Below, one piece after another: positions 59,701 through 62,700 of a DNA stretch of 64,000 bases. The DNA comes from a virus. Its lineage: Duplodnaviria > Heunggongvirae > Uroviricota > Caudoviricetes. The stretch lies in IMG/VR virus record IMGVR_UViG_2880412407_000011. One strand, written 5' to 3'. Position numbers: made by a program. Position 1 is the first letter of the stretch. Each line of letters opens with the position of its first letter.

Positions 59701-62700
59701 TTACGCGACATTGATGTTTTCAGACCAAACTGCTCCTGTATGACCCGGTAATCGTATGCGCAGTACTGTGAACCTCGATCAGAGTGGTGGATTAGCCCGG
59801 CAGGTGGGCGCTGGCTCCTGAGCGCCATAAACAGAGCTTTACCTGTCAGCTCTTTTGTCATGCGCTCTCCCATGGCGTAGCCGACAATTTCGCACGTATA
59901 AACATCTTTGATGCCAGCGAGGTACAACCATCCCTCCTGTGTGGCAACATACGTCAGGTCCGCCACCCAGACCTGATTTGGTGCTGTAGGAGCGAACGTC
60001 TGGTTCAGCAGATTTGGCGCAACTGGCAGATTGTGGTTCGAGTTCGTAGTCGCTCTGAACTTGCGTTTCTGCTTACAGCGTAGCCTTAGCTCCTTACGAA
60101 GACGTGCCAGTCGGTCACGACCAACGATGATGCCATTCTCTGCCAGCTCCGTCTGGAGCCGCCGGGTTCCATATGTTTCGCGAGTGCGGATATGTGCCAC
60201 CTTAATCTCCAGTTTTAGCCGCTCATCACTTTGTTTTCTGTCTGAGGGTTCATGCTGTACCCAGTTGTAATAACCGCTCCTGGATACACCAAATACCTGA
60301 CACATCGCTTCAATGGGAAATTGTTGTCGCCATTGTTCGATTAACGCGTATTTTTCAGCGACTCCTGTGCAAAATACGCTGTTGCTTTTTTTAATATATC
60401 TCGCTCAAGGCGAGCTTCATTTAACGCCTTACGCAGTTGCAGAATTTCAGATTCCAGTTCAGCCACCGTGCGGGAACCAGGAGTACCGAGCCCTTTTCTG
60501 GCGGCGGTAACCCATTGTCCTAAAGTGCCTTCAGGAAGAGATAATCGGGAAGCGCCTTCACTGATCGAAAGTTGATTTTCAAGAACCGTTCTGACAGCTT
60601 CGGCTTTGAACTCTTTAGAGTAACGTTGGGTTTTTCTGCTCATTATTAGCTCCTTCTGATGCCATTCTATTTCAGGAAGGAGTGTCCGTTAAACTCAGGC
60701 TACCTCATGTATTATATGCAAGAGAATAGGGAGTACTGGATACATTAACTCTATGTAATCCATTCAAGATATTAATGCAATTGAAATAATTGACATAAAA
60801 TATTGCATAGGTGAGGTTTATTGCTCAGAAGATGGAGTTATCGATGCAGAAACTGGAAGAACTGCGGCAGCGATAGCGCAGGTCGATTGCAATGACGAGA
60901 TTTATCAGCGCCAGCGTGGGATAAAAGAGAATCTGAGCAGTCTGGAGAATTTGAAATCGGTTAGGGATTTCATACTAGAATAATAGGATCCGCGGCACGT
61001 CGTATGCAAGAACGTGCTACGGCTGGCTGGCGAACTTTCGATAGTGCGAGTATTGAATGATTTCCAGCCGTTACCGATTTTACGTGTTAATTAGTGAACA
61101 AACCACTCGTCAGCAGACTCCCAGGTATCTTTCAGAGTTTCCTGAACAAAAGTTTTAGCTGAATCTTTATCGGCGGTGCGCGTAACAGAAAGGCCATCGT
61201 TGCTGGTGGCTTTTACGATCACCTCTACATCGTCATAACGCTTACTGATGCGTCGGGTTAATTCTTCCTTTAACGCATCCACAGCACCGTTTGGCATTTT
61301 AGTCATTTTTTCTTTGGCTATGCAGATCTCAATACGCATAAAAGTCCCTCTATACTGTGTTTGTATACAGTATTATTTTTAACTGTATGGATAAACAGTG
61401 TCAAGAGGTCTTATTTCTGCTCCTTTGGAGCTCTTCAAAACGATTATGTAAAGATTTCGGATACAGTTCGGTATATACCTGCCATAGCACGTTTAATGAA
61501 CGATGCCCTGTAACCTGAGCGACTTCCTCAATACTAAAACCAGCCTCAAATAAGCGACTTGCCCCTTCTCTACGCAAATCATGGTATCGCAGATCTTTAA
61601 TACCTAATTTGCTTCTTACCCTCTGAAATCCTGCAGTAACAGAAGTGCTGTTATATGGAAAAATGAATTCCGATTTTTTGGGCTGTCGTTGGACGATATC
61701 CCAGGCTTCCCCAAGCAAGGCTACTTTCATGTGGTTGCCTTCCTTTTTGCGTGGATCTTTCCTGTCTCTTACGAGTATAGATTTTTGTTCCTGGTCGAGA
61801 TCTTCCCATCGTAACCGGCATACTTCTCCGATCCGCATACAGGACCACACAGAAAATTTGAGGATATCAACGAACGGAATTTTTGAGCATTTATGAGTAG
61901 ATCGTTGTTGAAGGCCTTCAATGAGCATGTCCAGTTCATCAGATGCTGGTCTACGATTACGACGGTTTGATTTACCAATCAAACCAAGTTTAAGTAGATA
62001 TGGGCGAGCGCTTTTCGCTGGGTTTGATGTGTAATTAATTCCATATACAGGTTTGGCAGCATCCAGAACACTGCCAAGATAACTAACATCGTGGCTAACT
62101 GTAGCTGGACCTGCACCAGCGTTGTTTCTTAGCCTGCAATGTTCAATTACGTCATTTTCTGTCAGTTCAGATAGTTTGATCGCGGAGATGTCACTATCCA
62201 TAAGCAGTTCCAGCACATATCTTTTAGTACGGCCTGCTTTACCTCCGGCATTTGGGTCATTTAAATATTTGTGTAGTAAGTCACGGACTGTAAGTCCGTC
62301 AACTGCATTTGATGATGGAATGCCATATAGATCTAATTCCATCACTTTCTGTGTGCCCCATGTTTTGGCATGAGCATGTTTAGGGAATGTTTTGCTTTCC
62401 CTGTAAGTGATAACACCTTTTTCTTTGATAATCACATTACAGCGATAGCGTGGTGTGCCATCGGATTTTAGTCGTTTCTCTATGTTATAGTACGCCATTA
62501 CACGACCTCGTTATTTCGGGTTCCCATAAAACGTGGGAACCTGTGCGGGAACCTAACGCGAGAAAAATAGCCTGAAATGTTCAAAAATGCACGATAATCA
62601 TGAAACACTAAAAATTAATCAAACCAGCGTGATGCCTGAAAAAACTGGTGTTTACTGGAATTCTCGGTTTAGCATTGCTCCCATGCTCGACTGGACGGAC

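Follow-up and report, generated by a model that had tools for sequence, protein, structure and literature searches.

Tyrosine integrases that act at the 5′ end of dusA were defined by Farrugia et al. (2015) as dusA-associated integrases (DAI), and the elements that carry them as dusA-specific islands (PMC4482086). In these islands the integrase lies at the 5′ end of dusA, the 5′ end of the gene is replaced, and the boundaries are marked by semi-conserved attachment (att) repeats; a homologue of PrtN was present in 64% of dusA-specific islands and excision was demonstrated by PCR (PMC4482086). Escherichia is among the best-represented DAI genera, E. coli lysogens are included in Table S1, and the phage genomes retrieved as DAI matches numbered six, with mEp460 among them (PMC4482086). 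The second closely related system is the Stx2dact phage phi1720a-02 of Citrobacter rodentium, which inserts 100 bp into dusA, supplies a phage-encoded dusA′, has a seven-base core within GCTCCCATGCTCGACTGGA and has been demonstrated experimentally to excise (Balasubramanian et al. 2019, PMC6328086). The dusA/yjbM locus is also a listed insertion site of Shiga toxin (Stx) phages. Here a dusA locus is described in a 64,000-nt stretch of the viral record IMGVR_UViG_2880412407_000011 (the window, meaning this whole stretch), in which a tyrosine integrase lies beside dusA. The region is, almost certainly, the integrase-side attachment site (attR) of a dusA-integrated prophage whose phage-borne 5′ end has replaced the native one.

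Phages that rebuild their target gene include phage 21 and e14 at icd. The likeness is that the phage carries a copy of the displaced gene end; the difference is that a 5′ end with its promoter is replaced here, and not a 3′ end. The comparison with lambda Int and its attP is similar in kind, as repeats in both arms around a short core, over ~245 bp, suggest a heterobivalent logic.

The locus resembles the DAI islands in its divergent integrase at the 5′ end of dusA, in the 5′ end and promoter supplied by the element, in an att site at the same S-(I/V)-A-P-M-(L/M)-D-W codons and, as seen in sister genomes, in the displacement of the native 5′ end to the far boundary and a PrtN-family gene at the other end. 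It has an 8-bp core within a dusA-like stretch of ~100 nt, whereas the islands have 21-bp semi-conserved repeats for which arm-type repeats in attP were not described (PMC4482086); otherwise there is no essential difference. The att site occupies the same dusA codons as attL and attR of Acinetobacter baumannii D1279779 and as the core of phi1720a-02. Indeed, the core context of phi1720a-02 is exactly window positions 62678–62696 and contains the position of the window core, ATGCTCGA. The two prophages are also alike in being lambdoid, in their in-frame dusA′ and in the location of int at a non-canonical place beyond the tail genes, but phi1720a-02 carries stx2, whereas the window prophage carries nleG7 and espS-like effectors and no stx occurs in the window. 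In contrast to the free phage genomes of mEp460 and Lys8385Vzw, the window presents an integrated right junction. The module of DinI-like gene, int and dusA′ was found at a coverage of at least 80% in 725 of 5426 complete E. coli genomes and the system is documented in the literature, so it is already known, and the locus is an ordinary instance of a common system.

The integrase–dusA junction

The junction comprises the following features.

61091–61339, minus strand: DinI-like gene, phage cargo directly behind int (PF06183, E 1e-19)
61375–61404, minus strand: putative sigma-70-like promoter TTGACA-18-AAAAAT at the int 3′ end, reading into the DinI-like gene (consensus scan, 10/12)
61401–62498, minus strand: dusA-associated tyrosine integrase of the DAI family, 365 amino acids, intact (PF00589, E 1e-20)
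62499–62586: int–dusA gap of 88 bp between the divergent genes
62587–63624, plus strand: dusA (PF01207, E 8e-105)
62587–62682, plus strand: replacement dusA 5′ end from the phage, codons 1–32; identical to Lys8385Vzw, 19/96 nt unlike K-12
62683–62690, plus strand: 8-bp core and crossover region ATGCTCGA, dusA nt 97–104; common to attP, attB, attL and attR
62691–63624, plus strand: remainder of dusA, host-derived, in-frame fusion; 10/934 synonymous differences from K-12

The integrase has the complete catalytic pentad (R222, H306, R309, H332 and Y342, from alignment to XerA 5hxy and motif positions). The Int of mEp460 is annotated as INT_Rci (cd00796), and distant Int matches are annotated as shufflon-specific recombinases. 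A promoter is annotated in mEp460 at the place matching 61375–61404, and that sequence would act as a promoter of the DinI-like gene. The fused dusA open reading frame (ORF) is intact at 345 amino acids, with the Pfam Dus domain spanning residues 30–340.

An earlier note, made from the sequence alone, had described an integrase divergent from dusA at 88 bp from its start with a DinI-like gene behind it, and the ORFs lie exactly there. Its suggestion that the DinI-like gene belongs to the element agrees with the position of that gene next to int in mEp460 and Lys8385Vzw. The note had further pointed to a DusA in which the first 30 or so codons differ from K-12 at several positions and the rest is conserved. 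When the window gene was aligned with the prophage-free K-12 dusA (L003:1504-2541), the two were not identical and divergence switched sharply at the core: 19 of 96 nt differ before the core, none of 8 within it and 10 of 934 after it (Fisher p = 4e-14), the last ten being all synonymous. Amino-acid differences occur only at residues 3, 5, 7, 8, 15, 21, 23, 25, 26 and 30; with all ten changes confined to codons 3–30, both the N-terminus given in the note and its estimate of ~30 codons were therefore accurate. The 88 bp upstream of the window dusA share with the K-12 upstream sequence only a few final bases and a short motif that resembles a promoter, and are otherwise unrelated to it.

Reciprocal attachment sites and the displaced native 5′ end

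From the DinI-like gene through the core (61091–62690), the window agrees with phage Lys8385Vzw (MT225100) at all 1600 nt, and its Int is 100% identical to that of Lys8385Vzw and 98.6% identical to that of mEp460 (JQ182728). In both free phages the gene order is tail fibre, DinI, int, attP, small ORFs, PrtN-family gene and exonuclease. Int and the presumed excision factor lie on opposite sides of attP, and so at opposite prophage ends after integration.

The best match among complete E. coli genomes was the O121:H19-lineage strain 2014C-4423, in which a lambdoid prophage of ~52 kb lies between yjbM (DUF2713) and dusA. At the far end of this prophage is a 105-nt pseudogene annotated as "tRNA-dihydrouridine synthase, missing C-terminus", and the same 105-nt dusA pseudogene marks the far prophage boundary in O121:H19 sister genomes. 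The fragment is identical to the K-12 dusA 5′ end up to ATGCTCGA and continues into phage DNA, TAGGATGTATCG... The four sites, written as left arm, core and right arm, are:

attP (mEp460): TTGCTCCT - ATGCTCGA - TAGGATG
attB (K-12): TTGCACCA - ATGCTCGA - CTGGACG
attL (2014C-4423): TTGCACCA - ATGCTCGA - TAGGATG
attR (window): TTGCTCCC - ATGCTCGA - CTGGACG

The attL, attP and restored attB sequences are TTGCACCAATGCTCGATAGGATGTA, GCTCCCATGCTCGATAGGATG and GCACCAATGCTCGACTGGAC, respectively, and the phage arm expected after the displaced dusA 5′ fragment is TAGGATGTA... The attR of the window and the attL of sister genomes share ATGCTCGA and flanks, and by alignment the phage attP consists of the left arm in the window and the right arm of attL. 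All four sites are consistent with a single crossover in the 8-bp core. Given this reciprocity and the identity of 61091–62690 to Lys8385Vzw, the first 96 nt of dusA and the sequence upstream are therefore phage DNA, and the sequence from the core onward is host dusA. These data bear out the central proposals of the earlier note, that the integrase is dusA-specific and that its element supplied a replacement 5′ end. The note had also expected a displaced 5′ dusA fragment of 20–40 bp at the far boundary. Such a fragment does mark the boundary in sister O121:H19 genomes and is absent from the window, and its extent is not 20–40 bp but 104 nt plus the native promoter.

An attL of the 2014C-4423 type is present in 165 complete genomes, and the identical attL arm occurs in eight O121-lineage genomes as a single copy in each. 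A PrtN-family gene (PF11112) is present at the attL end in sister genomes, as well as in mEp460 and Lys8385Vzw. For annotation, the first 32 dusA codons and the promoter in such lysogens are phage DNA, and the 105-nt "dusA pseudogene" found elsewhere is the other prophage end.

In the attL of 2014C-4423 (L001:18731-19660), the native dusA promoter and the first 104 nt read into phage DNA, forming an ORF that stops after 40 codons. As this ORF points at a SocA/Panacea-domain gene on the same strand, 250 bp downstream, the host dusA promoter could drive phage cargo at attL in the lysogen.

Two further observations concern the att module. In the Lys8385Vzw record (MT225100) the 8-bp core occurs twice in tandem at attP (ATGCTCGAATGCTCGA); the likeliest reason is that the genome was put together from the ends of a prophage and both core copies were kept. 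A related module of DinI, int and dusA′ is carried by the 205-kb avian pathogenic E. coli (APEC) plasmid pEND_Eco 18005 (NZ_CP126947.1; L004:6188-6307), where it adjoins Mu/P2-like baseplate and tail-fibre genes. Its dusA′ ends after ...CTCCTATGC, inside a truncated parB gene, and looks like an integration at a secondary site that shares part of the core.

Arm-type repeats and promoter of attP

Two kinds of short motif accompany the core in the leader carried by the phage.

62483–62491, plus strand: candidate phage-borne copy of the dusA extended −10 promoter, TGtTATAGT (cross-species comparison)
62519–62525 (inverted), 62535–62541 and 62547–62553: three GGGAACC repeats of the attP/attR P arm, putative arm-type sites for integrase binding

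Relative to the core, the GGGAACC repeats begin at −164 (inverted), −148 and −136, and two P′-arm copies, GGGAGCC at +51 and GGGAACC at +62, are found in the phages and in attL. Only 16 matches to GGGAACC occur in the 64 kb, so three inside 35 bp are unlikely by chance (P ~6e-4 window-wide). Elements of Kosakonia and Phytobacter, whose integrases are 82–83% identical, preserve this arrangement of three sites, and an element of Pluralibacter (integrase 70% identical) has a different, co-varying TGGTGTAC-like repeat in an equal layout. On this comparative evidence the repeats are probably arm-type sites, as for a heterobivalent integrase that resembles the lambda one, and attP would span ~245 bp.

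The sequence TATGTTATAGT (62481–62491) fits the extended −10 motif TGnTATAGT. The TGtTATAGT copy lies inside the first codons of int, on the opposite strand, 5 bp from the int start codon (62496–62498). The motif T[AG]TGnTATA[AG]T was found at −99 to −107 from the core in 71 of 71 dusA loci of Enterobacteriaceae that are short-type and free of elements; in element-type loci the extended −10 motif is at −200 to −205 (−202 in the window). Conservation of the motif both at dusA and in the element therefore indicates that the phage has its own copy of the dusA promoter in addition to the 5′ coding end. The ~100 extra nucleotides between promoter and core in the element form house the arm repeats and 15 extra codons. 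Neither of the two dusA-integrase papers (PMC4482086, PMC6328086) mentions arm-type repeats, and this anatomy of repeats and promoter in attP may be new. The conserved arm repeats provide a testable model for the architecture of DAI attP sites.

A model of integration

The window junction is almost certainly the attR of a lambdoid prophage of the mEp460, Lys8385Vzw and phi1720a-02 type. In the proposed mechanism, a dusA-associated, Rci-related tyrosine integrase inserts the phage into the 8-bp core ATGCTCGA at dusA nt 97–104. The attP beside the divergent int holds a dusA look-alike module in three parts: first the dusA extended −10 promoter in copy, then a leader in which the three putative arm-type repeats lie, and lastly dusA-like coding sequence, 96 nt long, running to the core. 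Strand exchange in the core joins host dusA, from codon 33 on, in frame to this module, so that the lysogen keeps an intact 345-amino-acid DusA. The native promoter and first 104 nt are moved to attL at the far end of the prophage, where they form a dead fragment. The relation among the four att sites, the identity with a free phage, the intact ORF of the fusion, the catalytic residues and the prevalence of the module are established by the comparisons described above.

Several points weigh against this model. Short-word blastn of the window, with the window 5′ end and the displaced fragment of sister genomes as queries, detected no displaced dusA fragment and matched the dusA site alone. A two-hexamer promoter scan of 60900–62800 gave no plus-strand site in the 88-bp int–dusA gap. 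The prophage is a degraded one: it has insertion sequence (IS) insertions in the window, and its antiterminator is disrupted in sister strains. Lastly, the functional steps are predictions from the sequence: that Int would be active, that its N-terminal domain would bind the GGGAACC repeats, and that the phage-borne TGtTATAGT would drive dusA in the lysogen.

A chimeric prophage in the window

The remainder of the window holds the following features.

1 to ~6700: tail end of a further upstream prophage; matches strain 16-9255
7996–33653: left arm of a ydfJ-site lambdoid prophage, not of the dusA element; 99.9–100% identical to the 16-9255 ydfJ prophage
7996–9291, minus strand: integrase of the ydfJ prophage
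53006–62690, plus strand: right arm specific to the dusA prophage, including the tail fibre region; no mismatches to 2014C-4423 from ~53 kb, extra IS (55971–57280) aside
57479–58355: espS-like pseudogene, frameshifted, in the dusA-prophage right arm
58580–59230, minus strand: nleG7, in the dusA-prophage right arm
9561–10870 and 55971–57280: IS3-family element, two copies, absent at these sites in sister genomes; a 3-bp target duplication each
4600–5863, 10871–12101 and 59444–60708: IS600, three copies

Positions 1–33653 as a whole match 16-9255 at 99.9–100%. The following ~15 kb of late genes (33683 to ~48000) are identical, with no mismatch, in the ydfJ and dusA prophages, and the segment from ~48 to 53 kb, including the J gene (~50–53 kb), is an exact match to neither reference prophage. 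The excisionase gene of the ydfJ prophage lies beside its integrase, at the insertion point of the IS at 9561–10870. The window prophage is thus a chimera of two elements, with a left arm from the ydfJ site and a right arm from the dusA site. Both prophages are undergoing degradation by IS activity. The earlier note had assigned part or all of the prophage material to the dusA element; this holds for the right part, while the left part is the ydfJ prophage, and in annotation the prophage in the window should be divided between two elements. Because the dusA right arm is joined to a ydfJ left arm, the dusA attL and its PrtN-type gene are missing from the vicinity; the unit, as it appears here with mismatched ends, cannot excise by attL × attR recombination.

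The chimera arose either by a homologous-recombination inversion across the shared late region or by an assembly mis-join. According to the first account, which is judged slightly the likelier to be correct, the junction is a locked relic: recombination across the identical 15-kb late region inverted ~2.4 Mb, so that int and attR stayed at this locus and attL and PrtN came to lie far away in inverted orientation. This is compatible with the origin of the junction by dusA-specific integration but denies its present mobility. Besides the chimeric window itself, it is favored by the position of the two prophages ~2.4 Mb apart in opposite orientation, in both 16-9255 and 2014C-4423, and by the mismatch-free stretch that they share from 33.7 to ~48 kb. 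Against it, the chimeric arrangement of the window was found in no complete E. coli genome of the collection, and the inversion would, by our reasoning, unbalance the replichores. A literature search found no reports of prophage-mediated inversions in O121:H19.

The second account, an assembly mis-join across the 15-kb repeat with the real dusA prophage intact and its attL ~50 kb to the left, is held tentatively and is on balance doubtful. A 15-kb exact repeat exceeds the span of short reads and of many long reads, the identical attL arm is single-copy in all eight O121-lineage genomes that hold it, and a continuous dusA-prophage left arm follows attL in 2014C-4423 and 16-9255, the two examined. 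However, neither reference has the J gene version or two of the IS insertions of the window, which therefore comes from a distinct strain that may have undergone a real rearrangement. None of the complete E. coli genomes spans the junctions of the IS at 9561–10870.

It is very improbable that the whole ~55-kb prophage is a single dusA-integrated element of this integrase. The lambdoid gene order does run continuously from ~8 kb to 62.7 kb, and the intact dusA prophage of 2014C-4423 is of similar size. Yet 7996–33653 belongs to a ydfJ-site prophage that has separate integrase and excisionase genes; this segment does not carry the dusA-prophage left arm (with Panacea, PrtN and YfdP-R genes), and the window has no dusA attL.

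Ordinary allelic variation or import by homologous recombination, with the neighbouring integrase a coincidence, deserves practically no credence: the native dusA 5′ end of E. coli does vary in type (a K-12 form and a shorter B2 form), but over 1600 nt the variant stretch, int and DinI match a free phage without a difference and the switch falls exactly at the core common to attP, attB, attL and attR, so that the four-site alignment and the Lys8385Vzw identity refute it.

As an observation on gene content, the type III effector cargo of the dusA-prophage right arm (espS-like and nleG7; 57479–59230) has the tail fibre genes on one side and the int end on the other.

Possible fossil origin of the K-12 dusA start

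The two element-free dusA 5′ types of E. coli raise the possibility that the K-12-type "native" 5′ end (MHGNSEMQKINQTSA...) and the yjbL/yjbM segment are themselves the fossil of an older DAI-element integration, a proposal given an even chance of being right. The long K-12-type allele is found in ~80% of E. coli genomes. The short type occurs in ~19% (e.g. Z0117EC0013), with zur directly adjoining a shorter dusA, and is also found in E. albertii and cryptic Escherichia, with the promoter ~100 nt from the core. Because 71 of the 80 Enterobacteriaceae species representatives examined have the short N-terminus, as do B2-type E. coli, E. albertii and cryptic Escherichia, the short form looks ancestral. 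When compared with the phage collection, the B2-type 5′ end matched only Salmonella chromosomal contigs, so it is a chromosomal allele and not phage-like.

The long K-12-type start, MHGNSEMQKINQTSAMPEKTDVHWSGRFSVAPMLD, resembles the ends supplied by elements, those of Kosakonia and Phytobacter being MHGNLEMNKTHQSSALPENPDIHWSGRFS... The long type stands next to a DAI integrase in five species representatives of five genera, with the promoter at approximately −200, and the promoter motif of K-12 dusA is at −190, the spacing of the element type. The K-12-type and B2-type alleles part exactly at the att core: 16 of 27 nt are different just upstream of it and 7 of 292 nt downstream. In addition, the 1.6 kb from the zur-side breakpoint to dusA in K-12, which contain yjbL and yjbM (DUF2713), have 34% GC, against ~53% in the flanks. 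The loci compared were L003:1142-1610 (K-12), L005:3801-4060 (B2-type) and L011-L090.

The fossil proposal is opposed by three negative results. Searches for an integrase remnant upstream of K-12 dusA by tblastn and sensitive blastn gave matches at chance level, the best being a protein match with E 0.05 and a collinear 34-nt match with E 0.017, neither of which lends support. No displaced short-type 5′ fragment was found between zur and yjbM in K-12-type genomes. DUF2713 (yjbM) had no homologue among phages, so there is no evidence of yjbM as phage cargo. Alternatively, the phage lineage could have taken its dusA′ over from a K-12-type host, but this leaves the breakpoint at the core unexplained.

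This possible origin may be new. If the fossil proposal is true, the N-terminal extension of wild-type K-12 DusA, the dusA leader and perhaps yjbL/yjbM would be of mobile-element origin, with a bearing on the true DusA start codon. It would bear also on how attB variation (B2-type ATGCTTGA vs ATGCTCGA) shapes the range of lineages open to lysogeny at this insertion site of Stx phages.

Among the loci compared, L013 (CP169086.1, labelled Enterobacter hormaechei B17-3) encodes a DusA 97% identical to the E. coli protein, whereas the dusA products of other Enterobacter species are 92–96% identical to it over shorter spans; the likeness of L013 to E. coli may reflect mislabelling or horizontal transfer.

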